64,000 nucleotides of DNA, taken from the NCBI GenBank assembly GCA_020279385.1, contig GCA_020279385.1_4762.1; one strand, written 5' to 3'. Origin of the DNA: a phage. Numbering within the stretch: the first letter of the stretch is position 1; each line of letters begins with the position of its first letter. The notes beneath the pieces are model-generated. The model was not told the DNA's origin and made no database searches. It saw nothing but the letters and a program-made list of their open reading frames with translations. Positions 18,417 to 35,391 of this stretch are shown piece by piece. A program made the position numbers and the translations under genes.

Positions 18417-18979
18417 GCGTTAAATGACTTTTGGATCTCTTTCAGTTCAGCTACTTTATCGGCGCTGAATTTAGCGTAGGTATCATGTCGAATAATTTCA
18501 CTTTCAAGAAAGGTTTCCAGCCGAGATCTATTTTCAATAAGGAACTCTTTCAGGTCTTCCGCGTTCTTGATAAAGATTTTATTGTCAGTAATGTCATCTT
18601 CAATCGCAAAGGAGATAGAGCGAACTTTACCAAACAAGTTAATCAGATCTTCCAGCGATTCTTCTTTCTTAACTGGTTTCATTTCTTCAAACTGCTTTTT
18701 AGTGATTCGTTTAAAGTATTTGCGCTCGCTTGCGTCAATCATGATTGACGCGCCCTCATAATCATGAGTTTCTACCAAATACACTTTACCCATAACATTA
18801 ACCGTAAGAACTTTAAAGCCCCTGTGAAGCACACCATACAGGAACTTGTTATGTTGTGGATAGCGTTTGATAAATTCCTCTGCGGACTCAGCATTACGGA
18901 AAGTGTAATAACGACCTCGTTCAAAAACAGCATCATTTGAAGACTTAGCTGGATACAATTTATACGTTTTCTGTACCAT
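18413..18979 (-). CDS. Paralog family B protein
   Basis: MVQKTYKLY... from ATG 18979 with GAGGATTATATT RBS; ERKYFKRITKKQFEEMK motif. Confidence 0.6.
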   Translation of the reverse strand: MVQKTYKLYPAKSSNDAVFERGRYYTFRNAESAEEFIKRYPQHNKFLYGVLHRGFKVLTVNVMGKVYLVETHDYEGASIMIDASERKYFKRITKKQFEEMKPVKKEESLEDLINLFGKVRSISFAIEDDITDNKIFIKNAEDLKEFLIENRSRLETFLESEIIRHDTYAKFSADKVAELKEIQKSFNA

Positions 18980-18993
18980 AATATAATCCTCTA

Positions 18994-19266
18994 TCATTTC
19001 ACTAATTGAACAGCACGAAACAGAATGCGGTCACACGGAAGAAGCATAAATTCCCAACGCGGATCAAAGTCTTTAGCGGTATATGTTTTCCCATCAACCG
19101 AGATTTCACTTACATAACCAATAGGTGACACTTTAAGAACAGTAAACCCATTCTTGATGACTTCGTAGGTATCTTTCAATCCTTCGTAGTCATCCTCTAG
19201 GAAGTCTTTACGTGCTTGCTCAGATTTAAAAACATAGGCCACACCGGATTTAAACATCTTACGCAT
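18994..19266 (-). CDS. Paralog family B short member
   Basis: MRKMFKSGVAYVFKSEQARKDF... from ATG 19266 after AAGGAGAATCAA. Confidence 0.5.
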   Translation of the reverse strand: MRKMFKSGVAYVFKSEQARKDFLEDDYEGLKDTYEVIKNGFTVLKVSPIGYVSEISVDGKTYTAKDFDPRWEFMLLPCDRILFRAVQLVK

Positions 19267-19297
19267 TGTTGATTCTCCTTCTTGATTAGATGGGAGT

Positions 19298-19326
19298 ATT
19301 TTACTACTCCCATTTCTTATTGTCAA
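19298..19326 (-). promoter_or_regulatory. Early promoter TTGACA-N17-TAAAAT with GGGAGTA/TACTCCC palindrome
   Basis: Upstream of 18994-19266. Confidence 0.45.
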
Positions 19327-19329
19327 CTA

Positions 19330-19803
19330 CTATCTTAATCTTTGTATAAATTGTTTCTTATACTTCTTCGTGATCTCTTCTCTTGTATCCGCGTCACAGT
19401 AATCGAAACCTTCTGCGTCCATAATAGCAACCATCTCCGAGCGTGTCAAGCGTGAAAATCGTTTTACTTTATCAACAGCATATTGAGGATGTAAATGATT
19501 GTTGGTGTAGTCTCCTTTGATGTAATTAACATAGTTTGTAGCCCAAACAACGAAATCAGCACCTAAAGCACCAACACCAAACCGTTTAAAGTCTCCGGTC
19601 AACGATCCTTCTAGGCGGTTGCAACACGAATGAAGCAATCCCCTTACGCGGCCTTGCCCTTTCCCATCTAGATCATGATCATGGTCAAGATGGTTTTTGC
19701 TCATATCCTCAAAAAGTGGCAATTGACAAAGGGGGCAAATGCCCCCCTGTTTTTCGAATAGTTCTTGTTTATACTCTTTAGCACTCTTAGCAGTCAGTAA
19801 CAT
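19330..19803 (-). CDS. 49: Endonuclease VII (Holliday junction resolvase) gp49
   Basis: 157 aa from ATG 19803; CPLC..HLDHDHDL..GKGQGRVRGLLHSCCN matches T4 endo VII. Confidence 0.9.
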   Translation of the reverse strand: MLLTAKSAKEYKQELFEKQGGICPLCQLPLFEDMSKNHLDHDHDLDGKGQGRVRGLLHSCCNRLEGSLTGDFKRFGVGALGADFVVWATNYVNYIKGDYTNNHLHPQYAVDKVKRFSRLTRSEMVAIMDAEGFDYCDADTREEITKKYKKQFIQRLR

Positions 19804-19827
19804 AAATTCACCCTCCAAAGAAGGTAT

Positions 19828-20109
19828 TTAACCATTAATCTTGTTTTTGACTACAAAGGATCGGAACTCATCAAAACCACCTATATAATCACCATTATAG
19901 AAAATCTGCGGCATGGTGGCAATAACTTCTACCCCTGCGCGATCCTGAATGTCGGCAATGATAGAATCAATCTTTACCGGACGACCGTTTTCGTCCACAC
20001 CATCATTAACCGGAATGTAGATGTAAGGGATCTTACGCGATTCACAAAGGCGCTTTGCATTCTGGCAATACTTACAGTTATAACCTTCAAAACCAAAAAT
20101 TTCTACCAT
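19828..20109 (-). CDS. nrdC: Thioredoxin/glutaredoxin NrdC
   Basis: CKYCQNAKRL redox motif and MPQIFYNGDYIGGFDEF as in T4 NrdC. Confidence 0.85.
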   Translation of the reverse strand: MVEIFGFEGYNCKYCQNAKRLCESRKIPYIYIPVNDGVDENGRPVKIDSIIADIQDRAGVEVIATMPQIFYNGDYIGGFDEFRSFVVKNKING

Positions 20110-20110
20110 G

Positions 20111-20866
20111 TTATACCTCATTCAGTTCTATATCAAGTTCATTTTCAATAATATAGGCATTAACTGCCCGTGCCGCATCATCTTCTGTGTCAAATCTTCC
20201 TATATACACACCGCGAACTTTAGCACCGTAATTACCTTGTTTTGGTACTTTGTAAACGTATCTATGACGGGAACTTGCTGCTTTTTGGAGCTTCTTGCCA
20301 TATTCAGACTTTGCATATTCTATATCATCAATCTCGTTTATACAAGACCTATCACCAAAATGTTTCAACGCTGCAAGATTATATGCATACGCCGCACCGA
20401 TCTCGGAGGGAAAATATCCTAAATGTATAGACTTCCCATCCAACATTATTGCACCAGTCCAATAACCTTTATTCTTATTAAACGACACACCTTTATACTT
20501 CGAATATGTTTTGCATTTGGTCTTGCTCATATTCATATTATTTTGTTTGCTTGTCGTCTCTCTAAGGTTTTCAATGCGGCTATTATAACGATCTCGGTCT
20601 TTATGATCTATATACTTAGGACAATGACCATGAAACATATGATAGATAACACGGTGCATACGTTCGTATCGCTCGCCAGTCCATACAATACGATACCCAT
20701 CGGGGGTATCACTTCCAGCTAATCCGTTTATAACACCTTTTCGGTGCGGGTGAATCTTCCACCTAAGAAAACCATCATCATAATAAAACCGTGAATGATA
20801 TAAATCATACAAACGTTTATCTTCTGGAGTCTTGTGTATAACATCATATTTTAACATTGGTGACAT
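20111..20866 (-). CDS. HNH homing endonuclease with tandem AP2-like DNA-binding domains
   Basis: IDHKDRDRYNSRIENLRETT HNH motif; two YKGVSF/YGAKVRGVYIGRF AP2-like modules. Confidence 0.8.
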   Translation of the reverse strand: MSPMLKYDVIHKTPEDKRLYDLYHSRFYYDDGFLRWKIHPHRKGVINGLAGSDTPDGYRIVWTGERYERMHRVIYHMFHGHCPKYIDHKDRDRYNSRIENLRETTSKQNNMNMSKTKCKTYSKYKGVSFNKNKGYWTGAIMLDGKSIHLGYFPSEIGAAYAYNLAALKHFGDRSCINEIDDIEYAKSEYGKKLQKAASSRHRYVYKVPKQGNYGAKVRGVYIGRFDTEDDAARAVNAYIIENELDIELNEV

Positions 20867-21659
20867 AAACTTCCTTAGTATCGGATTTTTTACCCCCGCT
20901 ACGATCTAAACAATATGTTTTATCCAGTTCAACAACAGAAACATCATTACGTTCGATAAAATCAAGCAAATGGTTGTTAACTTTCCCTTTGTGGTGAGTA
21001 ACATTGCTTAATCCAAACTTAGTACCGCTAGACATTAATGATTCTATCCACATGTAGAATTTAATCTCTTCTTCTTCACTCCAGAACTTATTATATTCTG
21101 CCGACGTGATCCAATATGGCGGATCAAGGAAAACGAAATCATCCGGCAAGATCTCGATCTCGTCATAGCGACCAGACGTAAAACTGATTCGACCGTCTTT
21201 GTTTTCTTCCTTAAAATTCAGGACACGCTCTACCGCGTTTTCGTTAAAAGTCCGGCGACCAAAATTAGCATTAAATTCTCCCTTCCGGTTATGGCGGTTA
21301 ATGTTGCTAAAACTGTGCTGAATCAGAACAAACAGAGATAGCGGATCTGGATTCTCGTTATACTTCTTGCGGAATGCCATGTAAGCATCTTTATCATCAC
21401 GAGACAAATCATTTTCGGCAATAATCCGCTTGATCGTAGAAACCGGATCAGGACACTCGTCAATCGCTTTGTACGCGTCAATTAAGCGGTGATCATAGTC
21501 ATTCGCCAGAACATCCCCTTCGACGTACAGAGACACGCTCAAGCCGCCACAAAAGGCATCAACAAAGCGGTTATAGTGCTTAGGGAAATACTTACTAACA
21601 CCTGGCAATAACTTTTCCTTATTGCCAGTATAGGGAATTAAACCTAATGCTTTCTTCAT
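20844..21659 (-). CDS. dam: DNA adenine methyltransferase Dam
   Basis: YTGNK, FVDAFCGGLSVSL, DPPY, FGLSNV blocks colinear with T4 Dam. Confidence 0.9.
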   Translation of the reverse strand: MKKALGLIPYTGNKEKLLPGVSKYFPKHYNRFVDAFCGGLSVSLYVEGDVLANDYDHRLIDAYKAIDECPDPVSTIKRIIAENDLSRDDKDAYMAFRKKYNENPDPLSLFVLIQHSFSNINRHNRKGEFNANFGRRTFNENAVERVLNFKEENKDGRISFTSGRYDEIEILPDDFVFLDPPYWITSAEYNKFWSEEEEIKFYMWIESLMSSGTKFGLSNVTHHKGKVNNHLLDFIERNDVSVVELDKTYCLDRSGGKKSDTKEVYVTNVKI

Positions 21660-22090
21660 TATCCCTTCCTCAAATAAGTTCGCTCAATCTCTACCAGTTC
21701 GAAAAATTCATCCCAATCACACGGAAAGTTGCAGTTTCCAAAATGGTCTTCGTTATAGAGTTCTTTACCGGATGGCAGCTTAATATCTGTTACAGTATAC
21801 CAACCGCAACAATCGCAATCACCCTCAGCAACAGAAACCTTCGTAGGAATTTGCATCATTGCTAGATAGGTCGGTACGTCAGACTGTTCAAAGATCATGT
21901 AACCTTCATGGTCAAACGAGACAAAATTGTCATCACCCAAAAAAGGAATGTAATGGTCATAATCGGTTACAGGTTGACCGTGCAATTCCCACTCTACAAT
22001 TTTAACATTACCGCTAAACTTGATACCCATAATGTCAACAAGAAAATGAGTATCGTCAATGTAAATCTTACTAGGAGTTGGATAAACCAT
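21659..22090 (-). CDS. Hypothetical protein
   Basis: 143-aa ORF. Confidence 0.5.
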   Translation of the reverse strand: MVYPTPSKIYIDDTHFLVDIMGIKFSGNVKIVEWELHGQPVTDYDHYIPFLGDDNFVSFDHEGYMIFEQSDVPTYLAMMQIPTKVSVAEGDCDCCGWYTVTDIKLPSGKELYNEDHFGNCNFPCDWDEFFELVEIERTYLRKG

Positions 22091-22100
22091 TATATAATCC

Positions 22101-22397
22101 TCATATCTCAGAGAATAGAATCTCTGTTAGCTTCACTGACTGCTCTCTGAATGTTAGCGTATACTCGAAAGGAAAGTCAACACCTAATTTCAGAAGAGAA
22201 TAGCCTACCGCCTCTTTATGCTTATCGGTTAGGGCGATCCTAACCAATTCCCGTTGAATCTCTTTAGGCGGTGAATGGATAGTAACACGGGTATCATGCA
22301 ATGTCCAGTCACCATTACGAATCAAGATTAACGGGTTATCATCATTGAAGATCACCGACCCCTTTCCGGTCGGTGAGTGTTTTATACTAATCATCAA
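22101..22397 (-). CDS. Hypothetical protein
   Basis: 98-aa ORF. Confidence 0.45.
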   Translation of the reverse strand: MMISIKHSPTGKGSVIFNDDNPLILIRNGDWTLHDTRVTIHSPPKEIQRELVRIALTDKHKEAVGYSLLKLGVDFPFEYTLTFREQSVKLTEILFSEI

Positions 22398-22608
22398 ATT
22401 CTAAGAAATATTCTGGAACGATATACCCGTTAAAGTCATTGCACTTATAAAAATGTGGTGCATTTAATGCTGGATGAGCATTAGTAAAGAGTTTACCCTC
22501 TAGAAACAGAATGTAATTAATAGGTCTAATACCTACAGAATCAGGGTCTAAACCTTTTTCTTTCAGTTCAGCCAGCGTTAAAACTCGTCCAGATCGTAAC
22601 TTAGCCAT
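22387..22608 (-). CDS. Hypothetical protein
   Basis: 73-aa ORF. Confidence 0.45.
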   Translation of the reverse strand: MAKLRSGRVLTLAELKEKGLDPDSVGIRPINYILFLEGKLFTNAHPALNAPHFYKCNDFNGYIVPEYFLEFDD

Positions 22609-22894
22609 GATTTACCCCTAATTCATCAAGATTATGTCGCAGCATTTCAGAGTATTTTTCTACTTCCTTGATCTTAGTGTGGATCTCCACGATCTCATCT
22701 TCACTATCAGATAGTTTAATGGCAATCGCGAGCGTGCTTTTACCAGCTTTCATAGTCTCTTTCCGTTCAACCAATAGATCCGCGTGTTTCAATAGCAATT
22801 CTTCACGTTGAACATAAGCGACGGTCAAAGCCTCATCAGCAATTTCTAAAGCGTTTTCAGCGACACCAACAACCATTTTACGAGTAGACAGCAT
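22601..22894 (-). CDS. Hypothetical protein
   Basis: 97-aa ORF. Confidence 0.5.
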   Translation of the reverse strand: MLSTRKMVVGVAENALEIADEALTVAYVQREELLLKHADLLVERKETMKAGKSTLAIAIKLSDSEDEIVEIHTKIKEVEKYSEMLRHNLDELGVNHG

Positions 22895-22908
22895 AAATTC
22901 ACCTCACA

Positions 22909-23217
22909 TTATTTCACGTTAACGCCGTCATCAATCCAGCCGACGCTATTTGGTTTAACAGTTTTACCATAGGATGCATACTTAATCAAGCATGGTTTAA
23001 CATCATTATCAAATCTTCCTAAACGTACTCCCAAATCAGGAATATCCATGTATGCGGCTTTATATCCCCATGTACCGTATTCAGAATCAATCTCAACCGG
23101 ACGGCCTTTAAAAGCATACACTACACCGTGACGGTCAACGATAACATAGCGATAGCCAGCCGGAAGATACACAGTTTCGCCGTAAACTTTAACTGGAGTA
23201 GCAGAAGAGATAAACAT
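22909..23217 (-). CDS. Hypothetical protein
   Basis: Start reset to ATG 23217 (GAGGATTATATTATG); promoter 23252-23280 upstream. Confidence 0.5.
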   Translation of the reverse strand: MFISSATPVKVYGETVYLPAGYRYVIVDRHGVVYAFKGRPVEIDSEYGTWGYKAAYMDIPDLGVRLGRFDNDVKPCLIKYASYGKTVKPNSVGWIDDGVNVK

Positions 23218-23251
23218 AATATAATCCTCACATCGTTCATTTGATGCGGTC

Positions 23252-23280
23252 ATTATATGATAACCGCATTTTCATGTCAA
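23252..23280 (-). promoter_or_regulatory. Early promoter TTGACA-N17-TATAAT
   Basis: GCGGT/ACCGC hairpin around -10. Confidence 0.5.
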
Positions 23281-23287
23281 CAGTTTT

Positions 23288-23596
23288 TTAAAAATCTTCT
23301 TCCGGTTTATATCGACCGTCATCGACTGGTTTTGGACTGAATCCTTTATGCGTGCGCGGCTTCGCTTCCGGTTTACCAGCAATCATCAAACCAAAACATT
23401 TCAGCCCCTTATAACACATAACAATATCAACCACGATCCACGTTATAGGCCATAAGATTGCAGCAATACAAAATGCTCCTGTATCGACCTCTTTGGTGTC
23501 CTTGTCGAATCTGGCGTACAAGCAGAATACTAGATACGAGATCATTGCACCAGTAGTCCAGATATAAAGCACATTAACAATATCTTGTGTTGTCAC
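23288..23596 (-). CDS. Hypothetical membrane protein
   Basis: Hydrophobic segments; GTG start 23596 preceded by AAGGAGGATAAT. Confidence 0.45.
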   Translation of the reverse strand: MTTQDIVNVLYIWTTGAMISYLVFCLYARFDKDTKEVDTGAFCIAAILWPITWIVVDIVMCYKGLKCFGLMIAGKPEAKPRTHKGFSPKPVDDGRYKPEEDF

Positions 23597-23606
23597 ATTA
23601 TCCTCC

Positions 23607-23885
23607 TTACATGTCTTGCAGTGCATAAAAGCATTTTTCTTCATAGTCATAGAAAATGTCAAAGTATGCTTTTTCCACATACTCGCCATTAATCCAAGCG
23701 GCAGTAACAATCAGAGTGGTCCAGTTAGATCCGCTCTCAACGGTAAAGGTTTTAATACCCAGCTTCGCTGCCAAGTCGAACGCAAACCGGACGCAACCAC
23801 GGCAGGAAGTGATATTGGAAGTTTTTATTTTAAAGCCACCGCGAGTTTTAGAAATTTCTACTTTAGCGAAAGACAGGTTGCTCAT
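23607..23885 (-). CDS. Hypothetical protein
   Basis: 92-aa ORF with GGAGAATCAAA RBS and promoter 23928-23956. Confidence 0.55.
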   Translation of the reverse strand: MSNLSFAKVEISKTRGGFKIKTSNITSCRGCVRFAFDLAAKLGIKTFTVESGSNWTTLIVTAAWINGEYVEKAYFDIFYDYEEKCFYALQDM

Positions 23886-23927
23886 TTTGATTCTCCTTAA
23901 GAAAGTGTGTTTCGTTTTGATGTGTGT

Positions 23928-23956
23928 AGTATAGGGGATACGTGATCCCCTGTCAA
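23928..23956 (-). promoter_or_regulatory. Early promoter TTGACA-[GGGGATCACGTATCCCC]-TATACT
   Basis: Palindromic spacer. Confidence 0.5.
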
Positions 23957-23964
23957 CAATTTTT

Positions 23965-24228
23965 TTATGATTTTAGTGAATTAACCACTACATCAAAATG
24001 ATGTACAGAGCACACCCTACGAAACACATATTCATCATGTTTCGGAATCGCCCCCAACCGCTTTATTTCGCTCGCTGACACGATAAACCGTTTATCAGGT
24101 GCATTTACCTTATATGCTTCAACAACGCACGGAAAACGCGTTTTAGAGAGTTCGGGATAGTTTTCTGACTCCATCAGGACAATGAATACCCTATTACATT
24201 GATTGTAGAATCCGGTTTTTGATTTCAT
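23965..24228 (-). CDS. Hypothetical protein
   Basis: ORF; start ambiguous (overlaps upstream ORF in ORF-track coordinates). Confidence 0.35.
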   Translation of the reverse strand: MKSKTGFYNQCNRVFIVLMESENYPELSKTRFPCVVEAYKVNAPDKRFIVSASEIKRLGAIPKHDEYVFRRVCSVHHFDVVVNSLKS

Positions 24229-24535
24229 CAAGTTTTCTTCTCTGTGAAATTCGTGCAATCTTCCTTTCATGATTTCGTTGGTTCTTGTCTTCACAGTTTA
24301 CCCACTCAACAAGGTCTTTGCCTAACTCGAAAGCCCATTCTCGGTCCTGCTTTACGTTTTGTAGGTATGGACTTTCCGACACTCGACGAAGTGATCTTGT
24401 CGTAACAAGAATGATCCCAGGAATGTTCGGATGTTCCTTTCCATATACAATAGGACGCGAGTCACTATCAATACCCTGTAAGAAGGTGTATCCTGAATCA
24501 CTTAGGATCATATACATTTTCATTTCATCCATCAC
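24194..24535 (-). CDS. Hypothetical protein
   Basis: 113-aa ORF. Confidence 0.45.
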   Translation of the reverse strand: MMDEMKMYMILSDSGYTFLQGIDSDSRPIVYGKEHPNIPGIILVTTRSLRRVSESPYLQNVKQDREWAFELGKDLVEWVNCEDKNQRNHERKIARISQRRKLDEIKNRILQSM

Positions 24536-24789
24536 AGTTTCCTCAACCAGTTATTAAAGCGAGTAAACCATGATGCTTTTCGTGCTTCTTTTACTTTATG
24601 TGCCCGCAAACCACTGAAACACCATTCATAATCATCACTGAAACATGATTCAACAGGAACACCCGCATTTCGTAGTTCTCTGGTCTTTATCATGAATCCT
24701 TGACATAAGGGGCGACCTTCAACAATGATAGGAAGTTTAACTTTTTCCATGAAAGTATACCCAGCACGGTCAATAATTTCAATCTTCAT
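24532..24789 (-). CDS. Paralog family C protein (KLPIIVEGRP family)
   Basis: MKIEIIDRAGYTFMEKVKLPIIVEGRP...; RBS GAGGATTATATT. Confidence 0.6.
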   Translation of the reverse strand: MKIEIIDRAGYTFMEKVKLPIIVEGRPLCQGFMIKTRELRNAGVPVESCFSDDYEWCFSGLRAHKVKEARKASWFTRFNNWLRKL

Positions 24790-24807
24790 AATATAATCCT
24801 CAATTGA

Positions 24808-25011
24808 TTACACTTCCCAGGCTTCTTTGCTAAGAAAACACCATTTATACTCAGGAGAATAACCTTTAATCGGTACTCCAGCTTTTTGTAATTCCTGCGT
24901 TTCAACAACATAATCATGCCCATACGGTCGGCCTTCCACGATGATAGGAAGTTTAACACCTTTCATGAAAGAATATCCACCATCGTCAAAAATTTCAATT
25001 TTAATTTTCAT
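24808..25011 (-). CDS. Paralog family C protein
   Basis: MKIKIEIFDDGGYSFMKGVKLPIIVEGRP... Confidence 0.6.
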   Translation of the reverse strand: MKIKIEIFDDGGYSFMKGVKLPIIVEGRPYGHDYVVETQELQKAGVPIKGYSPEYKWCFLSKEAWEV

Positions 25012-25034
25012 TTTACATTATCTCCATAGTTCTT

Positions 25035-25256
25035 TCAATCAATATCAATTTCACCAGCACGAACATCTAGGATAAGATGCGGTAGGTGTATGCAATTTTC
25101 CCAACCAATGCGCTTCATTTCTTCTACGGTAACGTAAGCCCACCCGTTCGCTGTAATAAAGTCTACTTCAACCTTGAGAGGAAAGCAAGACTTTTCTATG
25201 TCTTCAAATCCGATAATGTGTTTTGTCGTTGAATATGGAATATATCCGGTGATCAT
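25035..25256 (-). CDS. Hypothetical protein
   Basis: 73-aa ORF. Confidence 0.45.
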   Translation of the reverse strand: MITGYIPYSTTKHIIGFEDIEKSCFPLKVEVDFITANGWAYVTVEEMKRIGWENCIHLPHLILDVRAGEIDID

Positions 25257-25687
25257 TTTGTGATCTCCTTATACTCAACACACCATAAGCGGGTAGCCCA
25301 TGATAAACGCTCATAACGCTGGCAGAAATTGGACCATAGATATTGTGTACCGTCTTGCATGGTTGAAATATGCGTTTTCTCACCTAATTTCACGAAAGAA
25401 GTATTCGATTTTGTGATCTCGACCGGAGTATATCCGAAAGCGGGTTCCAACTCAACATCTGAACTAAATGCCAATTTAACAGAATTTGTTTTCCTGACCG
25501 CTGTCCGGTTTCCTTCTGGGTATAGCACAGCAGGTTTAGCGCCTAAGCGGATAAACTCAGTGTTTTTAATAAACAGAATATCATGATAACCGTCATATTC
25601 CGACACTTCCATAGTAACAGGAAAATCGATATGTGCTAAACCTGGTAGATCTCGCATATCATGAAATGTAGCCATCAACTTTTTCAT
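25253..25687 (-). CDS. Hypothetical protein
   Basis: Start reset to ATG 25687 after GAGGAATACAAG. Confidence 0.5.
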   Translation of the reverse strand: MKKLMATFHDMRDLPGLAHIDFPVTMEVSEYDGYHDILFIKNTEFIRLGAKPAVLYPEGNRTAVRKTNSVKLAFSSDVELEPAFGYTPVEITKSNTSFVKLGEKTHISTMQDGTQYLWSNFCQRYERLSWATRLWCVEYKEITK

Positions 25688-25697
25688 CTTGTATTCC

Positions 25698-25895
25698 TCA
25701 CTCTTCTGTTTCATTTCTTTTATATGGTACTATAACAGGATTAATACAGCAAGCACCAATTACGTTATGAGCACCACAATTTAAGCATTTATAATCATGG
25801 AACTTATTAAGGAATCGCCCGAACTCATAACCGACTAACGCCGCGTGTACTTGAGTCTCGATCTCATCCATATCAGCCAATGTTTTAACCTTCAT
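25698..25895 (-). CDS. Hypothetical Cys-rich protein
   Basis: MKVKTLADMDE...CLNCGAH..CC; start reset to ATG 25895 (GAGGATTATATTATG). Confidence 0.5.
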   Translation of the reverse strand: MKVKTLADMDEIETQVHAALVGYEFGRFLNKFHDYKCLNCGAHNVIGACCINPVIVPYKRNETEE

Positions 25896-25905
25896 AATAT
25901 AATCC

Positions 25906-26196
25906 TCAAATACTGGTTTTGCGAAGATGGTCATTACATGCTTTTAATGCATCAGTCGCGGTGTCATAGCGAGTATTATCATAGCACCAGTAACCATCTG
26001 TCAACTGATAAATTAATCCATCCTTTTTAGCGTCGATGAAAGACAATTCTTTGAAAGTTTCTACTTTCTTTGCTGATACTCCACGGTCACGGCGTTTATA
26101 GAGTTTAGCTAAAATGCGTTCAGCTTGTTCCTCTTTATCGCCAGACAGATCTCAGATGATGTTTCTGATATGCTTGATTAATTGTTCAGTGGTCAT
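25906..26196 (-). pseudogene. Small early gene interrupted by in-frame TGA at codon 15 (stop at 26152-26154)
   Basis: Own promoter (26227-26254), SD TAAGGAGAATCAAAT and ATG 26196; single reading frame MTTEQLIKHIRNII*DLSGDKEEQAERILAKLYKRRDRGVSAKK... continues 81 codons past the TGA. Confidence 0.45.
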
Positions 26197-26226
26197 ATTT
26201 GATTCTCCTTAGTTGGTATGGTTATC

Positions 26227-26254
26227 ATTATACGGGGATTTCTCCCCGTGTCAA
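26227..26254 (-). promoter_or_regulatory. Early promoter TTGACA-[CGGGGAGAAATCCCCG]-TATAAT
   Basis: Same palindrome as at 6355-6371; drives the TGA-interrupted gene. Confidence 0.5.
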
Positions 26255-26257
26255 CAA

Positions 26258-26479
26258 TTAAATGATCTCTGCTTCACCGTTAAGGAAGAAAGACCATGTT
26301 TTGTTAGGATAACGAAGCGCCCACGATTCAGCAGTTTTAACACCAGCTTCGAACAATTGACGGCTGGTTACTTTAGCCATACCATCTTCGATGGCAACGT
26401 TTTCAATAATCATCGGGTACTTAGCGCCACGCATGAAACCGAAGCCAGCGGAAGATTTGATAATTTTAACAGTTGCCAT
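26258..26479 (-). CDS. Paralog family C protein
   Basis: MATVKIIKSSAGFGFMRGAKYPMIIEN...; ATG 26479 after GGAGAATCAAAA. Confidence 0.6.
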   Translation of the reverse strand: MATVKIIKSSAGFGFMRGAKYPMIIENVAIEDGMAKVTSRQLFEAGVKTAESWALRYPNKTWSFFLNGEAEII

Positions 26480-26518
26480 TTTTGATTCTCCTAGAAAGTG
26501 TCGTGTTTCGATGGGTGT

Positions 26519-26547
26519 ATTATGCAATAACACCGGATCGCTGTCAA
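26519..26547 (-). promoter_or_regulatory. Early promoter TTGACA-N17-CATAAT
   Basis: GGTGT/ACACC palindrome around -10. Confidence 0.5.
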
Positions 26548-26566
26548 CACTTTCTAAGAAAAATTT

Positions 26567-26851
26567 TTAAACTAATCGAATATAACCAAGAATTTCAGCG
26601 CCTTTAGCCAGTCCTAAAACTTCCCATTCAAGGTCGCCGTAGTCATAATTTGCAACCATCAACTGACCATTTTTCATGCAGCAATCATGAGAGAAAATTT
26701 GCCCCGCATAAACTACGATAGTAATAAACTTTCCTGATTCTGGCGGTGTGGAAGACAAAGCGACCATATGACCATTCAGCTTAGTAACCAGTGATGGAAC
26801 AATAAAATTCGGGCTTACCTTAATACCGTTAAATTCGTTTGTGTCTTTCAT
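26567..26851 (-). CDS. Hypothetical protein
   Basis: 94-aa ORF. Confidence 0.5.
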   Translation of the reverse strand: MKDTNEFNGIKVSPNFIVPSLVTKLNGHMVALSSTPPESGKFITIVVYAGQIFSHDCCMKNGQLMVANYDYGDLEWEVLGLAKGAEILGYIRLV

Positions 26852-27198
26852 GCCAGACCTCGCAAAACACTAATAGCATAATCATGCTGGTTATTCATAA
26901 TATCAATTGCATTGTGATAACGAGCTAAACCATCAAGGATAAATTCTTGTTTATCCTGTTTCAGTTTGGTATCACGCGCAGCCATAAGAGCATCAAGAAC
27001 AGGTCCAAAGTGATTATCTAATTCATCTTCGGTTGCAATGTTTCCTATTGCCTCGTCGATCCGTGATTCTAATGCTTGCTTTTCGTTGATCACTTGCTGG
27101 GTATATTCCAACACATCAAGAATATCGCGGGTAACGTCGCCATGATAAGGTATTCCCGCATGAAGATGATCAATTAATCGCTGAATATCAATGTTCAT
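26848..27198 (-). CDS. Hypothetical protein
   Basis: 116-aa ORF. Confidence 0.5.
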   Translation of the reverse strand: MNIDIQRLIDHLHAGIPYHGDVTRDILDVLEYTQQVINEKQALESRIDEAIGNIATEDELDNHFGPVLDALMAARDTKLKQDKQEFILDGLARYHNAIDIMNNQHDYAISVLRGLA

Positions 27199-27533
27199 TT
27201 GTAACCCTCCTCTGAAAGCACATCCCAGATCGTTGAGTCAAGATGCATTAAATTCCACATAATAGAGTCATAACTACCGAAGCCAGAAGTAAAAATTACA
27301 TCACACTGGCGATAGGTCTTATGAAAATCGGTGGCTGTCTCTGCATCAATCGGCATATCGTCACCTGAAAGCACCAGACATTTAAGAATCATAACTCTGT
27401 TAGCCGTTGGCGCTTGCTTAGTCTTTTCAGCATATTTTTCGATGATCCGTTTTGCCTTTTCTTCTTTGATACGTCCAGACCAAATCCGGTTTCGGTATTG
27501 ATTCATAATAATTTCAATCACATCATTTTGCAT
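27195..27533 (-). CDS. Hypothetical protein
   Basis: 112-aa ORF. Confidence 0.5.
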   Translation of the reverse strand: MQNDVIEIIMNQYRNRIWSGRIKEEKAKRIIEKYAEKTKQAPTANRVMILKCLVLSGDDMPIDAETATDFHKTYRQCDVIFTSGFGSYDSIMWNLMHLDSTIWDVLSEEGYK

Positions 27534-27732
27534 TCTTCACGGTCTCCATAATGGTTTTGTAAGCCAGTTTAAGATGATCACCGAAAAACTTTGCGGTGTT
27601 ACCCTTCGGATCGCGGAGCATGGTTTCTACGATCTCATCGGCAGTAACAATTTCTCCTTTCTTTGCTGAATGTTCTACCATATACTTCAAAGTTTCTTCG
27701 GAAGCAAGTGCTGCCGCTACTGGATTAATCAT
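27523..27732 (-). CDS. Hypothetical protein
   Basis: 69-aa ORF directly downstream of promoter 27763-27791. Confidence 0.5.
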   Translation of the reverse strand: MINPVAAALASEETLKYMVEHSAKKGEIVTADEIVETMLRDPKGNTAKFFGDHLKLAYKTIMETVKNAK

Positions 27733-27762
27733 TTTTGATTCTCCTTTGTTTTCGATGTGTGC

Positions 27763-27791
27763 ATTATGCTATACCCTATTCCGGTTGTCAA
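27763..27791 (-). promoter_or_regulatory. Early promoter TTGACA-N17-CATAAT
   Basis: Directly downstream of terminator 27797-27828. Confidence 0.5.
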
Positions 27792-27796
27792 CACCT

Positions 27797-27828
27797 AAAA
27801 ACGAAAAAGCCACCCTTTCGGATGGCTT
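27797..27828 (-). terminator. Intrinsic terminator
   Basis: GCCAUCC-GAAA-GGGUGGC hairpin plus UUUUUCGUUUUU. Confidence 0.65.
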
Positions 27829-28060
27829 TTGATTATATTTTATTCACGTCCATTTGTATAGTAGTGTTTGAATCGACCTTTGCTAAACTAGTTAAACATA
27901 GTAACCAATTCACCATCCCTTTCCAATGATAACCCTTCCTCGTCTTAGACGGGTCTTCCGATTCGGCAGTAATTGAACACGCGAAAGTATGAGGAAGCCA
28001 AATAGTTGTGTTAATGCTAGTATTCTTTTACTTCTGGTATGCATCCCACGGTGACTAACA

Positions 28061-28459
28061 TTAAGACAGTCGAGTGAGTTTATAAATTGTTTTAAAACAT
28101 AGAGCTTTGATATCGTCTAAAACGCTCTGTAACGAGCTATCAACATCATTATAAATCTCACTAGCCATTTGCGTTAACTCTTGCAAATAGGCAATTTCGC
28201 TAATCTCCTTGCGGACGACCAACGTTGGCTGATAACGACCAGTGATCCCAATATTGGTTTCAGTGAAATCATCAACCAATTCTTGCATTTCAAGATAGAA
28301 CTCTTCTAGAGCCTTATGTTTTGCATAAGATCCAGGACCAGTTACCCCAAAATGCGCAGAATGCATATAAGTAACACTCATCAGACATTCACCGATAAAG
28401 CGGTCAACTTTATTAGCTTTCCCCTCTTCGGACGTCTTTCGAAAATCACTGAATTTCAT
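28061..28459 (-). CDS. Hypothetical protein
   Basis: 132-aa ORF downstream of rI. Confidence 0.5.
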   Translation of the reverse strand: MKFSDFRKTSEEGKANKVDRFIGECLMSVTYMHSAHFGVTGPGSYAKHKALEEFYLEMQELVDDFTETNIGITGRYQPTLVVRKEISEIAYLQELTQMASEIYNDVDSSLQSVLDDIKALCFKTIYKLTRLS

Positions 28460-28749
28460 GTTCTCGATTCTCCATATTTATGCAACATAACAAACTGTTG
28501 TGCGGCATATTCCCCCATAATAAAACACTGCTTAGAATCCATACATTTACTACGAGCATACATCTTCATAATATGGGCATGAAATTTCTGGCTGGTTTCA
28601 ATGGAAGGAGATATTTTGTTTACATATACTATCATTGCACCGTCGAAATAATCAGTAAAGTCACCAGTTGGATCATATTGATCAGCACTGACACTTCCGA
28701 CCGCAGTCAAGCATATTGCCGCTGTTAGAGTTTTACGAATAAATGACAT
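28456..28749 (-). CDS. rI: Lysis-inhibition regulator RI-like periplasmic protein
   Basis: 97 aa, N-terminal signal/anchor MSFIRKTLTAAICLTAVGSVSA, C-terminal KCMDSKQCFIMGEYAAQQF resembling T4 RI; adjacent to tk as in T4; late-promoter motif upstream. Confidence 0.6.
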   Translation of the reverse strand: MSFIRKTLTAAICLTAVGSVSADQYDPTGDFTDYFDGAMIVYVNKISPSIETSQKFHAHIMKMYARSKCMDSKQCFIMGEYAAQQFVMLHKYGESRT

Positions 28750-28782
28750 AAGTCATTCCCCCAGATTAAAAATATTCAGTTA

Positions 28783-28790
28783 TATTTATA
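28783..28790 (-). promoter_or_regulatory. T4-type late promoter TATAAATA upstream of rI
   Basis: TATAAATA on minus strand 33 nt upstream of rI ATG, in loop of a CCCCAGATTA/TAATCTGGGG inverted repeat. Confidence 0.4.
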
Positions 28791-28817
28791 ATCTGGGGCT
28801 TTATTTATGATTAACTC

Positions 28818-29414
28818 TTATTTGGTAGTACCGTCAATAAAATGTTTACGGCACACAGAGACATATTTATCCTCTGCACCAACTTCTATTTGAGCACCAT
28901 CGCGAATAACATTACCATCTTTATCTACGCGAAGGACCATAGTCGCTTTCTTGCCACAATGACAAATACCCTTCATTTCGACCAGTTTATCAGCAAATGC
29001 CATTAATGCCGCAGATCCTTCAAATAGATTGCCCTGAAAGTCAGTGCGAAGGCCATAGCACAGTACAGGGATATTTGCATCATCAACAAGCGCACACAAG
29101 CCTAAAACATGCTCTTTAGTCATAAATTGGGCTTCATCTACAAATACTGCATCTGGACGCCAGCGATCCGTTCTACGCTTACCTAGTGATTCACGATAAA
29201 CCAAGTCGAAAAGATCATCCGATTTAGTGAAGGTGATCGCTGGAGCACTTAGACCAATTCGGGAAACGACTTCACTTTCTGAATCTCGATTATCAATCGC
29301 TGGCTTAAGAATTAATACTCGCATATCACGTTCGGTATAGTTATAAGCACTTTGTAACAGAGAAGTTGATTTGCCAGCGTTCATAGATGCATAGTAGAAA
29401 TATAATTGCGCCAT
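28818..29414 (-). CDS. tk: Thymidine kinase
   Basis: P-loop YYASMNAGKST, VDEAQF, Zn-ribbon CHCG..C..H as in T4 Tk. Confidence 0.95.
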   Translation of the reverse strand: MAQLYFYYASMNAGKSTSLLQSAYNYTERDMRVLILKPAIDNRDSESEVVSRIGLSAPAITFTKSDDLFDLVYRESLGKRRTDRWRPDAVFVDEAQFMTKEHVLGLCALVDDANIPVLCYGLRTDFQGNLFEGSAALMAFADKLVEMKGICHCGKKATMVLRVDKDGNVIRDGAQIEVGAEDKYVSVCRKHFIDGTTK

Positions 29415-29707
29415 TAATTAATCTCCAAAAATCCAACAAGACCTAAACCGATATAAGTCCAGATACCAATAAAAAAGATGTTAATGCTCATGGCAAGGAT
29501 AAACCCTTTCAGAGTTTTGGGATACCCGACCCAATATTCCCGACCATCTTCTAACCGGATCAACTTATTTCCTTGCGAGTCCATATCAACCACAACATGT
29601 TTATTTCGAGATTGCAATAGATATTGTTTTACAATCTCTACACCCGCCATAATAACAATAACGAAAATAAAAGTCCACACAACAAGATTAATGATAGTCT
29701 CAAGCAT
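29414..29707 (-). CDS. Hypothetical membrane protein
   Basis: 97 aa, two hydrophobic helices. Confidence 0.45.
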   Translation of the reverse strand: MLETIINLVVWTFIFVIVIMAGVEIVKQYLLQSRNKHVVVDMDSQGNKLIRLEDGREYWVGYPKTLKGFILAMSINIFFIGIWTYIGLGLVGFLEIN

Positions 29708-29942
29708 TTTCTATCACCTCCACCCAATCAGGTGTTTCCTGAAAGACTCCTTCACCTTCATGATGGTCGCAACCTTTATTGCTGCAATACATCCACCAAT
29801 CCCACATTCCCCACGGTAAACGCTGCATATCGTCGTTACAGCAAGTGAAGATGATAGGCCAACCACATCTAACACATCGGCAGTTTTCCTTCATGTGAGC
29901 GGTATTAGACTTCTTCATAGATGACTCCAATATAATCGACAT
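29700..29942 (-). CDS. Hypothetical Cys-rich protein
   Basis: 80 aa with CRCVRCG...CC...C..C. Confidence 0.4.
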   Translation of the reverse strand: MSIILESSMKKSNTAHMKENCRCVRCGWPIIFTCCNDDMQRLPWGMWDWWMYCSNKGCDHHEGEGVFQETPDWVEVIENA

Positions 29943-30145
29943 TTACATTTAGGACAATGCGGTTCTTTAATATAATACCCGTCTGTCTTTGGAACACTAA
30001 CAGGAGCGGTTTTTATATTGTATTCAGTGAAACAACGAAAACAAGTTACGTTTTCTACAGACTGACGTTTCACCCAATCACCGGAATATAGATCATTTTT
30101 ATTTGTCATATTCAACCACCACAATGTTAATGTCTGGAGTAGCAA
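29915..30145 (-). CDS. Hypothetical Cys-rich protein
   Basis: 76 aa with CFRC...CPKCKC. Confidence 0.4.
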   Translation of the reverse strand: MLLQTLTLWWLNMTNKNDLYSGDWVKRQSVENVTCFRCFTEYNIKTAPVSVPKTDGYYIKEPHCPKCKCRLYWSHL

Positions 30146-30554
30146 TATTAATGATCTCTTCTACACATTCCCACTCAAGGCCACCGATACCGCAACCGAT
30201 TTTAGGAATATAGAAAGGCTGTATAGCACCTTCAAAAACATCATTGATAGTCTCAAATCCTTTCAGGATAGCACCATATTCAGCATTTGGACCCGGTCGG
30301 AATTGGGTATATAGATTCACCCCGCACCAGTTATAACCATTAACTTGATGCGTCCAGACACTAAACCCACCCAGCTTTTCTACCTTACCGCGAGAAGTTT
30401 GCTTGTCAATCTCTAACGCTTGCGGGAACTCTTTCGCGATCTTTGCAGCAATACCAGCACCCATAGTATGAAAACAATTACAACCATGAATTAAATGACC
30501 GTTTCCTTGTTTAAACAGGGCGATGAGATCGCCCTTTACAGTATCAATAATCAT
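30099..30554 (-). CDS. Macro-domain-like protein (putative ADP-ribose binding/processing)
   Basis: 151 aa; HGCNCFHTMGAGIAAKIAKEFP and IPKIGCGIGGLEWE blocks resembling macro domains. Confidence 0.6.
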   Translation of the reverse strand: MIIDTVKGDLIALFKQGNGHLIHGCNCFHTMGAGIAAKIAKEFPQALEIDKQTSRGKVEKLGGFSVWTHQVNGYNWCGVNLYTQFRPGPNAEYGAILKGFETINDVFEGAIQPFYIPKIGCGIGGLEWECVEEIINIATPDINIVVVEYDK

Positions 30555-30569
30555 AATATAAACCTCTCA

Positions 30570-30929
30570 TTAGTCACGGGAAGACAACCCAGCCATAAAA
30601 CGGCTTAACAGTGTGTCGCGATAAGCAAAGCATAATTGCTTATCAGGGGCAGTATCACAAAGGTTGCGTTTTGTTTTAGCAAAGCTGGCAATACTCAGAT
30701 CCCATGCTCGATTTTTTCGTTTTTCGTCTCGACCTTGTTTGTATGCTTCGTCAAGTTCGAGCGCGATAAAATCGCTACACATGTTATCATCATCACAGAA
30801 GGTTTTAATGATCTTTTTGTTGATCTCAAATCCTTTGTATTCGAACTTTGGATAAGGGCGCTCATTACTAGCAAGCGCACCAGCAGAGAACATCATAGCA
30901 ATCATAGCAATTATTGTCAACTTTTTCAT
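30570..30929 (-). CDS. Hypothetical secreted protein
   Basis: 119 aa, signal peptide MKKLTIIAMIAMMFSAGALA. Confidence 0.5.
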   Translation of the reverse strand: MKKLTIIAMIAMMFSAGALASNERPYPKFEYKGFEINKKIIKTFCDDDNMCSDFIALELDEAYKQGRDEKRKNRAWDLSIASFAKTKRNLCDTAPDKQLCFAYRDTLLSRFMAGLSSRD

Positions 30930-30936
30930 ATATTCC

Positions 30937-31527
30937 TCAATAGCGTTTAGTTTTAAGAATGCCTTTACTCTTTAGATGGTTAGCCTTTTTTAGTACGTCA
31001 TCAGCATAACCTAAACCGGCTTTATAGTTCCACCCAGCATTGTAAGAAGCTAGCGCGAGTCGGATATTACCGTTTCGAACATCCAGCCAGTATGCTAACT
31101 CATCCATCGCGTAGAATGCAGAAACCTCGCGATTCATGATAAAGTTGATAGTCTGGCGATCACTCATTTTAACACCGCGCTTTGCATTTTTCGCTTTCAC
31201 CGTTTTAAGGTAATTTTGAAATAATCCATAAGCATGATGATTTTTCTTTGGTGCTAAGTTTGCACCCGCGCTTGATTCTTGCCATGCGATACCCGCCAGG
31301 ATGTGACCTAAACCCTTTCCGTTATAGCGAATATTCGGATGGTACTTTTTCAACTTACCGCTTTTCTCGAATTGCTCGCCGTATTGATAGGCGAAATGTA
31401 AATTATCTAGTTGGTGTGCTGTAAAGTTGTCTATCGGCGCTTTTTTGATCGGTGCGCTAGTCGATGCGTGTGTAGCACCAACGGCTAGTGACAGACTCAA
31501 TAATATCGCTTTTAGAACTTTTAACAT
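30937..31527 (-). CDS. Secreted lytic-transglycosylase-like protein
   Basis: Signal peptide; AWQESSAG..GLFQ..YNAG motifs of SLT domain. Confidence 0.65.
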   Translation of the reverse strand: MLKVLKAILLSLSLAVGATHASTSAPIKKAPIDNFTAHQLDNLHFAYQYGEQFEKSGKLKKYHPNIRYNGKGLGHILAGIAWQESSAGANLAPKKNHHAYGLFQNYLKTVKAKNAKRGVKMSDRQTINFIMNREVSAFYAMDELAYWLDVRNGNIRLALASYNAGWNYKAGLGYADDVLKKANHLKSKGILKTKRY

Positions 31528-31613
31528 TAATTTCTCCTGTTTGGCTTAACTTTCTGATTCCATAATATAGCCAGATCACCAGAAAGTCAAGCATTATTTT
31601 TAACCAATTTCCA

Positions 31614-32036
31614 TTATTGGTCTACCTTCAAAACAACCGCCGACATTTTACCCGCCAGTCGTTTTGGATTCTCTATAATCATTCGGCAGCATAGACCGTG
31701 ATATGGCTTACCCTCTTCGATTAGATCTACTGTCATCCCGATCCACATGTTACCGTCAGTAATTTCTAATCGATTCGGTCGGTCTTCCATTTTCAGGAAG
31801 TCGAAGATCTCCGGCAAACGAGTTTCTATCTTATTGAATAGTTCCATTGTCTTATGTTCATCAATATGACGATCGGTTAGACGGTCGATCATATGCGGAC
31901 TAAAGCGAATGAAAATATACTCACCGTAACCATCATTCAAGCACTTTTCTTTGATCTGCGCATTGGTTTTGCGCATTTCGGTTTCGAAGAATCTACGCAG
32001 CTTACTACGGCGAACATGTACGTTAATTGTTTCCAT
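31614..32036 (-). CDS. regB: Endoribonuclease RegB
   Basis: METINVHVRRSKLRRFFE...NRLEITDGNMW..CRMIIENPKRLAGK matches T4 RegB; ATG 32036. Confidence 0.85.
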   Translation of the reverse strand: METINVHVRRSKLRRFFETEMRKTNAQIKEKCLNDGYGEYIFIRFSPHMIDRLTDRHIDEHKTMELFNKIETRLPEIFDFLKMEDRPNRLEITDGNMWIGMTVDLIEEGKPYHGLCCRMIIENPKRLAGKMSAVVLKVDQ

Positions 32037-32040
32037 TTTA

Positions 32041-32376
32041 TTATCCTTTCTTAAACAAATTGCGAATCCAGTATACAAACGGGATTTCTTTAAACTTGAA
32101 TTTCTCTATAGTTAATTCTTTAGTAGCAAAATGAATACCATAAGCATCATGTGTAACTATATGCCATTTTCTATAGTCCAAATGTGAACAACCGTCTGGA
32201 TCTAGGTTAATAATAGTTTCTCGCTCACTAGGATTATTTTTCCACAATTTTGTAATAGGATCGCACATAATTCGACCTAGCGTACCATGAATAATCTCAC
32301 AACGGTAAAGTTTTCCAGCAGTGAGATAGGCGCACCCGTCATAGTCGGTATAAACAAACACTTCTTTAACACTCAT
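32041..32376 (-). CDS. Paralog family D protein (GCSHL motif)
   Basis: 111 aa; DPDGCSHLDYRKW motif shared with next two ORFs; promoter 32408-32437. Confidence 0.5.
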   Translation of the reverse strand: MSVKEVFVYTDYDGCAYLTAGKLYRCEIIHGTLGRIMCDPITKLWKNNPSERETIINLDPDGCSHLDYRKWHIVTHDAYGIHFATKELTIEKFKFKEIPFVYWIRNLFKKG

Positions 32377-32407
32377 TTTAATACTCCTTTGTTGTTTCGA
32401 TGGGGGT

Positions 32408-32437
32408 ATATTACTACCCCCCGATCATGTGTGTCAA
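32408..32437 (-). promoter_or_regulatory. Early promoter TTGACA-N18-TAATAT with GGGGGTA/TACCCCC palindrome
   Basis: Upstream of 32041-32376. Confidence 0.45.
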
Positions 32438-32683
32438 CTACTTTTTCAAGATTTTTTTGATTGCATTCCAAAGACCTTTATTTCCAGGTTGTTTTGGTTC
32501 TTCGATCAGTGTCCATGTTCGACCGTCTAAGTGTGCACAATTTTTAAGGCAAATAAAAATCTGGTGTCCCTTATCAGCACGGATATAACCACTATTCGCA
32601 AATCTTTCATGTGGTGTATATTCATACAGTGTATTAGGTGTAATATACTTGCGGTTACTATAAGGTGTCATCACATACATCAT
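32438..32683 (-). CDS. Paralog family D protein
   Basis: KNCAHLDGRTW motif. Confidence 0.5.
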   Translation of the reverse strand: MMYVMTPYSNRKYITPNTLYEYTPHERFANSGYIRADKGHQIFICLKNCAHLDGRTWTLIEEPKQPGNKGLWNAIKKILKK

Positions 32684-32874
32684 GGTACTAACTCCCAACG
32701 ATCACCGCGAAGATGAGAACATCCACCATCAAGAAGTATCGTAATACGATAACCTATATCATCTTTGATGTAACCGATTGTCGGTGGATTTTCGTCGTCT
32801 CGTGCCGGGGTAAAATCATACATCTTTCCGGGCGTAATATCTTGTCCTTTATTGCTATTGGTATAAACTTGCAT
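32680..32874 (-). CDS. Paralog family D protein
   Basis: LDGGCSHLRGDRW motif. Confidence 0.45.
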   Translation of the reverse strand: MQVYTNSNKGQDITPGKMYDFTPARDDENPPTIGYIKDDIGYRITILLDGGCSHLRGDRWELVP

Positions 32875-32895
32875 TTTCTTAATCTCCTATATTAA

Positions 32896-33594
32896 CTAAC
32901 CACGGGTATAGTGTTCCAGAACAACGGTCAGATGAATATATTCTAATAAATCCTTCCAAAAGTCAACATCTGGTCCTTCCGGCATACCGTTTTTCTTTGC
33001 CTCTTCACGCGCGAGTTTAACACGCTCGTAGAGATCTTTCAATTCTTCCCGCACATTATCAAAGGTTCTTTCTCCTAACTTACACGCTAAAATAGAAGAA
33101 CGTCGCGCGAGCGGGAATTGTAGATCACCTGTCTGATAGATTTCAAGTAGCTGATAACCAACACGCAGAGCATGAGAAAGATCTTTCCAGTTACTGAAAT
33201 ACTTTTCAGATTTTGCTACCTGTTTCTTGAGATAACCAGACAAACCCCACATACCAACATGATAGAATTTATCGCGATGTGTTCGGATGTATTCCCATTC
33301 TCTGGAGGATTCAACCAACATGTTACTAGGCGCGTGCACCATGTCAATAGCGCCGATATCGCCTTTACATGCCAGATTGATAAACCGTTTTAGACTGAAC
33401 ATATTAACATCAATATCGTCTTTGGTGTTCTTGATACCTTGACCGCTAGTGCTTTGGTCATAGTGTTCTTTCATCGATCCTAAGATAATTTCTTTCGCAG
33501 TCGGAACAAAGATACCACGATAATCTTTATCTGAATTTTCAGTATCGAGGCCATATAAGTGAGATCCGAAGACCATTTTAACCATTGTATGCAT
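32896..33594 (-). CDS. Minimal nucleotidyltransferase (Pol-beta superfamily) with C-terminal helical domain
   Basis: 232 aa; FGSHLYGLDTENSDKD fits the hG[GS]x3Gx5SDxD nucleotidyltransferase signature. Confidence 0.65.
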   Translation of the reverse strand: MHTMVKMVFGSHLYGLDTENSDKDYRGIFVPTAKEIILGSMKEHYDQSTSGQGIKNTKDDIDVNMFSLKRFINLACKGDIGAIDMVHAPSNMLVESSREWEYIRTHRDKFYHVGMWGLSGYLKKQVAKSEKYFSNWKDLSHALRVGYQLLEIYQTGDLQFPLARRSSILACKLGERTFDNVREELKDLYERVKLAREEAKKNGMPEGPDVDFWKDLLEYIHLTVVLEHYTRG

Positions 33595-33637
33595 AATTAA
33601 ACCCTCAGTTGATTAAGAGATTGCATCATATCATCAT

Positions 33638-33670
33638 AAAAAGAAAAAGCCAACCCTTTTTGGATTGGCT
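33638..33670 (-). terminator. Intrinsic terminator after GrcA-like gene
   Basis: GCCAATCC-AAAAA-GGGTTGGC hairpin plus UUUUUCUUUUU. Confidence 0.65.
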
Positions 33671-33680
33671 TGATGAAAAA

Positions 33681-35390: not shown

Positions 35391-35391
35391 A

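Follow-up and report, generated by a model that had tools for sequence, protein, structure and literature searches.

A premature TGA in an early gene of an RB49-like coliphage is very probably a recent nonsense mutation

An early gene of an RB49-like T-even coliphage carries an in-frame TGA at codon 15, and we consider it highly probable that a recent single-base nonsense mutation, which turned the TGG of Trp15 into TGA in one strain, has interrupted an accessory and probably dispensable gene. The analysis covered one 64-kb stretch of phage DNA (64,000 nucleotides, called the window throughout), in which the gene lies on the minus strand (Table 1). Its promoter and ribosome-binding site (RBS) are intact, and among the relatives examined the frame is broken at codon 15 in this strain only. 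The change is a knock-out or strong knock-down of an accessory gene, of an ordinary and already known kind, and is not programmed recoding. A preliminary description of the locus had reported the promoter, the Shine-Dalgarno sequence, the ATG at 26196 and the TGA followed by 81 open codons, all of which were confirmed when we read the minus strand across 25700-26400 and translated 25906-26196. It had left three explanations for the stop, namely a recent nonsense mutation, a sequencing error and a readthrough or recoding site; the first is supported by the evidence set out below, and the other two are disfavored.

Table 1. Positions of the interrupted gene and its signals in the window
Feature	Position	Strand	Basis or remark
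Interrupted gene, ATG to distal TGA	25906-26196	-	Strand read and translated
Sigma-70-type early promoter, TTGACA-16 nt-TATAAT	26227-26254	-	12/12 consensus match
Inverted repeat in promoter spacer, CGGGGA-GAAA-TCCCCG	26233-26248	-	6-bp stem, GNRA-type loop
Shine-Dalgarno sequence AAGGAG	26205-26210	-	8 nt before ATG
Codons 1-14, MTTEQLIKHIRNII	26155-26196	-	Sole part translated ahead of termination
Premature opal TGA, codon 15	26152-26154	-	Ancestral TGG (Trp)
Codons 16-96, open frame of 81 sense codons	25909-26151	-	Colinear with orthologues; zero further stops or indels
Promoter-like TTGACA-18-GATAAT inside coding sequence	25975-26004	-	11/12; consensus scan only
Normal stop TGA	25906-25908	-	Overlaps GAGGA Shine-Dalgarno of next gene (ATG 25895)

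The signals that precede the gene are those of its relatives. On the minus strand, the -35 hexamer TTGACA occupies 26254-26249 and the -10 hexamer TATAAT 26232-26227, with a spacer of 16 nt between them; perfect 12/12 sigma-70 sites of this kind occur five times in the window, against 0.07 expected by chance. The promoter is identical in phages FL15 and kvi in the DNA alignment and recurs in RB49 with an unrelated spacer sequence; the GEC-3S record has a promoter annotated at the corresponding position. The AAGGAG is unchanged in FL15, kvi and RB49, with an RBS annotated in Ec_Makalu_003, and the start codon follows at 26196-26194. Within the coding sequence, the promoter-like site at 25975-26004 is conserved along with the codons; judged by its match to consensus, it could either have arisen by chance or serve as an internal promoter that feeds downstream genes independently of translation of the interrupted gene.

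The window frame contains no ATG or GTG after the codon-15 stop, and to this extent the earlier statement that no internal start codon follows holds true; it does not extend to CTG17, ATT28, TTG51 and TTG65, which all lie in frame past the stop. None of these four codons is preceded by a usable, well-spaced Shine-Dalgarno sequence, and a product reinitiated at one of them would miss the conserved K8/H9/W15/D16 motif. We therefore rejected reinitiation as a source of product.

The phage itself belongs to Krischvirus. The region around the gene matches 59 phage records at 90-99.5% identity, all of them Krischvirus from E. coli and Shigella hosts, the nearest being FL15, which is 96-98% identical across ~48 kb. 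No phage record is identical across the region, so the window represents a distinct isolate. The gene belongs to a long block of leftward-running small early genes that separates the dam/nrd cluster from rI/tk. Hyperplastic regions of RB49 and phi1 have been described as rich in nonessential genes (PMC2839356), and the block is a hyperplastic region in that sense.

The interrupted gene is the orthologue of RB49p078 and Phi1 ORF078, a 96-aa protein annotated "hypothetical protein". With the tryptophan restored, the translation matches phrog_14129, a profile labelled unknown function, from residue 1 to 96 against profile positions 1-96 (E = 1.7e-53), and the 96-aa coding sequence (CDS) is annotated in ~59 Krischvirus genomes. 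The end-to-end profile match and these annotations together show that the interrupted frame is not a chance open reading frame (ORF). Identity to the Krischvirus orthologues is 94-99%, reaching 98-99% at the amino-acid level outside codon 15 for the RB49p078/Phi1 ORF078 family. The CDS is uninterrupted and 291 nt long in FL15, kvi, RB49 and twelve further isolates, with the exception of GEC-3S (285 nt), whose orthologue has a two-codon deletion. Synteny is kept as well: the gene lies downstream of RB49p080, with or without g38 (a tail-fibre adhesin gene) in between, and upstream of RB49p077, and its neighbors, promoter and Shine-Dalgarno sequence are the same as in FL15, kvi and RB49. By sequence and position the window copy thus belongs with the RB49p078 family, and what it lacks is the uninterrupted frame of ~96 codons, which the TGA breaks at codon 15; as far as sequence can tell, it is a family member in the form of a disrupted, pseudogene-like allele. 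No paralogue or second gene copy able to compensate was found within the window.

The junction upstream of the gene varies among these phages. In RB49, JSE, Phi1, GEC-3S, Makalu_003, PHB13, MIZ2 and SSG23, as well as in several metagenome contigs, g38 lies directly upstream as a terminator-flanked module (in RB49, positions 640-1580 of locus L002, compared with window 26197-26260). The whole module is missing at this junction from the window, FL15, kvi, KMB43, MIZ4, G5211 and UPWr_E1, and no gp38 homologue is encoded anywhere in the 64-kb window. A second difference in gene content lies at ~20111-20866 on the minus strand, where a 251-aa gene with HNH_3 and AP2 domains (homing-endonuclease-like) stands between genes for a Dam-type methyltransferase and a glutaredoxin; this stretch is missing from FL15, and the alignment breaks between window positions 20120 and 20943.

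Beyond Krischvirus, tblastn recovered distant homologues at 33-47% identity in a Drexlerviridae coliphage, a Providencia Kakivirus and a Proteus Novosibovirus. More broadly, the family also occurs as a gene of ~96-99 aa, at 33-48% identity, in T1-like coliphages (Drexlerviridae, Braunvirinae) and in T7-like phages (Autographiviridae) of Providencia (Kakivirus) and Proteus (Novosibovirus). The member in Proteus phage 309 is named "hypersensitive-induced response protein 4", apparently spuriously. Occurrence in three unrelated phage families suggests, speculatively, a mobile host-interaction gene.

Comparison across these relatives identifies the codon that was lost. Codon 15 is TGG in every one of the 27 orthologous loci that we read directly, in two sets: 19 loci from isolates, two IMG/VR contigs and two metagenome contigs, and 8 loci from two isolates and six ENA metagenome contigs, some of which may be one phage held in two collections. 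Of the three ancestral codons proposed earlier (TGG, CGA and GGA), only the first is consistent with this result, and the DNA alignment of FL15, kvi and RB49 likewise places TGG opposite the TGA of the window. All 27 loci read on past this position to the same distal TGA, where each of them ends; orthologues ending at the position of the premature stop, which would have spoken for a natural terminus, were not among them. The tryptophan is invariant in the three distant homologues as well, down to 33% identity, and W15 is one of ten invariant columns among 17 cluster representatives that include Drexlerviridae and Autographiviridae. The substitution pattern indicates purifying selection on the gene family, with a pooled pN/pS of 0.15 and 18/8/38 variable columns at the three codon positions.

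The altered base is window position 26152, a G>A change on the coding strand (C>T on the plus strand) at nucleotide 45 of the gene, which converts CTGGGAT to CTGAGAT. This is a substitution in a non-repetitive context rather than an indel, and it is the sole substitution in the gene that is private to the window. A lone private substitution in a frame that is otherwise undecayed points to a single recent transition, and the stop that it created is private to this strain.

The expected consequences follow from ordinary decoding. The promoter and RBS are kept, and the sequence gives no reason to doubt that transcription and the start of translation take place; the gene would still be transcribed early and its translation would begin normally. 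At the stop, which reads AUC AUC UGA G, release factor RF2 would be expected to free a 14-residue peptide, with the protein lost or down to a few percent. Readthrough of UGA in E. coli K-12, where Trp-tRNA(Trp) competes with RF2 for the codon, amounts to ~2% at 37 °C and to 4% at 25 °C (PMC10570021). Because UGA is misread by tRNA-Trp and the lost codon is itself a tryptophan codon, what little full-length protein is made would be identical to the wild type, and the allele would accordingly behave as a leaky, strong hypomorph rather than a clean null. Downstream effects are also conceivable: the Shine-Dalgarno sequence of the next gene overlaps the normal stop, so the ~245 nt of mRNA left untranslated could lower expression of that gene and perhaps others downstream, through lost coupling or Rho-type polarity, an effect that the internal 11/12 promoter-like site (26004-25975) might offset.

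Several lines of evidence suggest that the gene is probably dispensable: the region is described as rich in nonessential genes, the GEC-3S orthologue has lost two codons, a natural fusion designated P0004 deletes the N-terminal half of the gene together with intervening genes, and the strain evidently propagated well enough to be sequenced. P0004, found on a 10.4-kb Logan contig, is a 77-aa in-frame fusion that corresponds to window ~25906-26060 joined to 27670-27732. Its N-terminal part, ~22 residues, is the beginning of a homologue of the gene at 27523-27732, and the C-terminal 55 residues of the RB49p078 homologue follow, the two meeting at a shared 'AKK'; the fusion represents a natural deletion of ~1.5 kb that removed four small early genes and half of the RB49p078 homologue.

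The same mutation could have been raised by positive selection, if the protein is harmful on the phage's host, for example as a trigger of abortive infection. The change affects one of the most conserved residues and falls early in the gene, where inactivation is maximal; TGA is apparently the majority allele in the sequenced population; and a mobile accessory early gene found across unrelated phage families is typical of host-interaction genes. Against these points, drift and bottlenecking in phage stocks are expected to yield one nonsense mutation per ~100 small nonessential genes, and no parallel loss of function appears among the other isolates compared. We consider adaptive loss or down-tuning of the gene unlikely for these reasons. 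Similarly unlikely is that the UGA serves as a selected dimmer, which would lower the early protein ~25-50-fold, leave what remains authentically wild type, and be of advantage on the host; if true, a defense-triggering or toxic early protein would be held below its threshold.

A deposited error, in which the phage truly carries TGG and the A is artefactual, would also account for an allele that is unique among all public relatives and that affects an invariant residue of a constrained gene. A search of 50,697 phage records did not find the TGA allele, its closest matches there being one mismatch away, at the mutated base itself; IMG/VR and the JGI metagenome contigs lack it too. Exact-protein look-ups with the 46-aa C-terminal ORF and with a 153-aa version of the neighboring protein returned nothing; a look-up with the neighbor's 144-aa version returned a Logan contig of 20,160 bp, SRR12199279_73. 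Each Logan contig is an independent assembly of reads from a public run, and this one is identical to window 18360-35687 over 17,328 of 17,328 bp (100.000%, no mismatch and no gap), although SRR12199279 may be the window genome's own source run, so that the match gives read support but need not represent a second occurrence of the allele. Codon 15 is TGA in the contig too, and the gene caller of that collection leaves the slot empty where every other locus has the 96-aa gene. The stop is thus present in the raw reads of the same strain and is not a slip of assembly, editing or deposition. A Logan contig follows the majority k-mer path, and a minority TGG subpopulation may accompany the majority TGA in the lysate.

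The rest of the genome is in keeping with this result: of the 110 FL15 CDSs, 99 have full-length, intact counterparts in the window, and the interrupted gene is the only one of the 110 with an early in-frame stop substitution. A homopolymer-length difference elsewhere in the window is the type of change that some sequencing platforms produce, and would favor error; its shorter allele, which phiS and an unrelated metagenome contig also have, is probably real too. Together with the non-repetitive context of the substitution and its reproduction by the Logan assembly, these observations make a sequencing, assembly or consensus error very improbable.

The homopolymer difference lies in the orthologue of RB49p055 (~180 aa), which adjoins nrdD at window 14085-14623 on the minus strand. 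A T7>T6 change in the run at ~14502-14507 shifts the frame and leaves a 61-aa ORF and an overlapping 134-aa ORF. The T6 allele is also found in phiS, where two CDSs are annotated, and in the unrelated ENA metagenome contig (L034), and its recurrence there indicates that it is probably genuine variation; FL15, ELT4 and RB49 have T7, as do most of 57 records judged by match length. In the zero frame the T6 allele reads U_UUU_UUA, a canonical -1 slippery heptamer, at which a -1 slip would give 179 aa colinear with the T7 protein. Recurrent mutation, a site at which slippage is tolerated and sequencing error could each account for the allele. The RB49p078 orthologue is therefore not the sole disrupted gene, and either the strain or its sequence is less than perfect. 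A small gene at 25035-25256 (minus strand) also differs from its FL15 counterpart, encoding 73 aa instead of 84 and ending 11 codons earlier; relatives have versions of 73, 82 and 84 aa, which suggests natural variation in length at the C-terminus rather than damage to the gene.

Deliberate decoding of the UGA, whether by readthrough, as selenocysteine or tryptophan, or by frameshift or bypass, so as to regulate or diversify the product, is the least probable explanation of all. In its favor, no E. coli stop codon is leakier than UGA, and the tRNA that reads it, tRNA-Trp, carries the amino acid expected at this position (PMC10570021); the 81 codons past the stop are also wholly open. The stop is not conserved, however, given the TGG in all orthologues read, and because it is private to one strain it fails the defining test of programmed readthrough. 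TGA also works as a normal terminator in this phage, ending 36 of the 96 intact genes of the window, the gene's own end included, and in 8 of the 36 it stands in the same TGAG context. Folding of the 101 nt surrounding the stop gave a structure no more stable than those of shuffled sequences (minimum free energy -15.3 kcal/mol, against -13.8 ± 3.3; z = -0.47), Rfam yielded no match at E <= 1, and a tRNA scan of the window found 0 genes. A stop comes within 16 codons in the +1 frame and within 7 in the +2 frame, and the 14-aa upstream product would have no plausible independent role.

These tests were applied to each form of recoding separately. Programmed stop-codon readthrough was rejected on the unconserved stop, the lack of a stimulatory structure and the ordinary TGAG context; selenocysteine insertion, which pairs UGA with a SECIS element, on the lack of significant structure or an Rfam match and on the Trp in homologues. 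A reassigned code, with UGA read as Trp or Gly, is at odds with the many genes that TGA terminates and with the absence of tRNA genes from the window; the other stop-containing match among the 110 FL15 CDSs is a natural stop 11 codons short of that in FL15. An RF2-type +1 frameshift, a dnaX-type -1 frameshift and a hop like that of T4 gene 60 were dismissed on the zero-frame colinearity of the orthologues, which have no gap.

Searches for the function of the protein returned little. Pfam gave sub-threshold matches only (Csm6_6H, E = 0.009, 16.5 bits against a cut-off of 27.6), NCBIfam gave no match, and a profile search of PDB sequences found nothing (best E = 0.15). An AlphaFold2 model built on a 17-sequence alignment is of moderate confidence (pLDDT 72, pTM 0.36). 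It predicts an N-terminal hairpin of two helices (residues 3-14 and 20-38) with Trp15 in the turn that connects them, followed by a low-confidence linker and then by what would be a small helix/three-strand/helix unit. With this model, Foldseek searches of PDB and BFVD returned no significant match other than the orthologue from GEC-3S.

A recent nonsense mutation in the RB49p078 orthologue has few implications beyond annotation, where the locus is best recorded as a disrupted allele (pseudogene) of the RB49p078 family, neither as split short ORFs nor as recoding. The allele would offer natural evidence that a conserved accessory early gene is dispensable, or that a dosage of a few percent is tolerable, in at least one Krischvirus strain, and it makes the strain a ready-made hypomorph for study of a family common to T1-like and T7-like phages. 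For genome scans, TGG to TGA is the one nonsense change whose leak-through product is wild type.

The closest comparison is with the RB49p078/Phi1 ORF078 family itself, whose members share the locus, promoter, RBS and synteny of the window gene. The window copy differs in that TGA replaces the invariant Trp15, so that standard decoding gives no full-length product. The surroundings also resemble the promoter-early stem-loop (PeSL) cassettes described in the hyperplastic regions of RB49 and phi1 (PMC2839356, PMC4122927): the locus combines a strong sigma-70 promoter (12/12), a GGGG...CCCC stem-loop and a small ORFan-type gene in a hyperplastic region, and the neighboring g38 module is present or absent between strains at the junction. 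In PeSL cassettes, however, the stem-loop works as a terminator and lies upstream of an AT-rich region and the -35, whereas the GGGG/CCCC repeat of the window lies inside the 16-nt spacer; the scan called no terminator at this repeat (26233-26248), and no T-run follows it. These cassette-like surroundings are the context for the nonsense mutation, not its cause.

The coat protein/A1 pair of phage Q-beta provides the model for programmed UGA readthrough, in which tRNA-Trp decodes the stop at a few percent in E. coli and so extends the protein. In Q-beta, the stop is conserved and each of the two proteins has a function; in the window gene, by contrast, a single strain has the stop, and what precedes it encodes a stub of 14 residues. 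The nearer parallel lies in the T-even phages, for which classical opal mutants exist (T4). Such mutants likewise carry a single-base UGA within a coding sequence. Residual expression past a UGA comes from near-cognate decoding by tRNA-Trp in competition with RF2, at 2-4% in K-12 (PMC10570021). The window allele differs from them in being spontaneous, in coming from a natural or stock isolate, in affecting an uncharacterised gene, and in that its leak restores the exact wild type.
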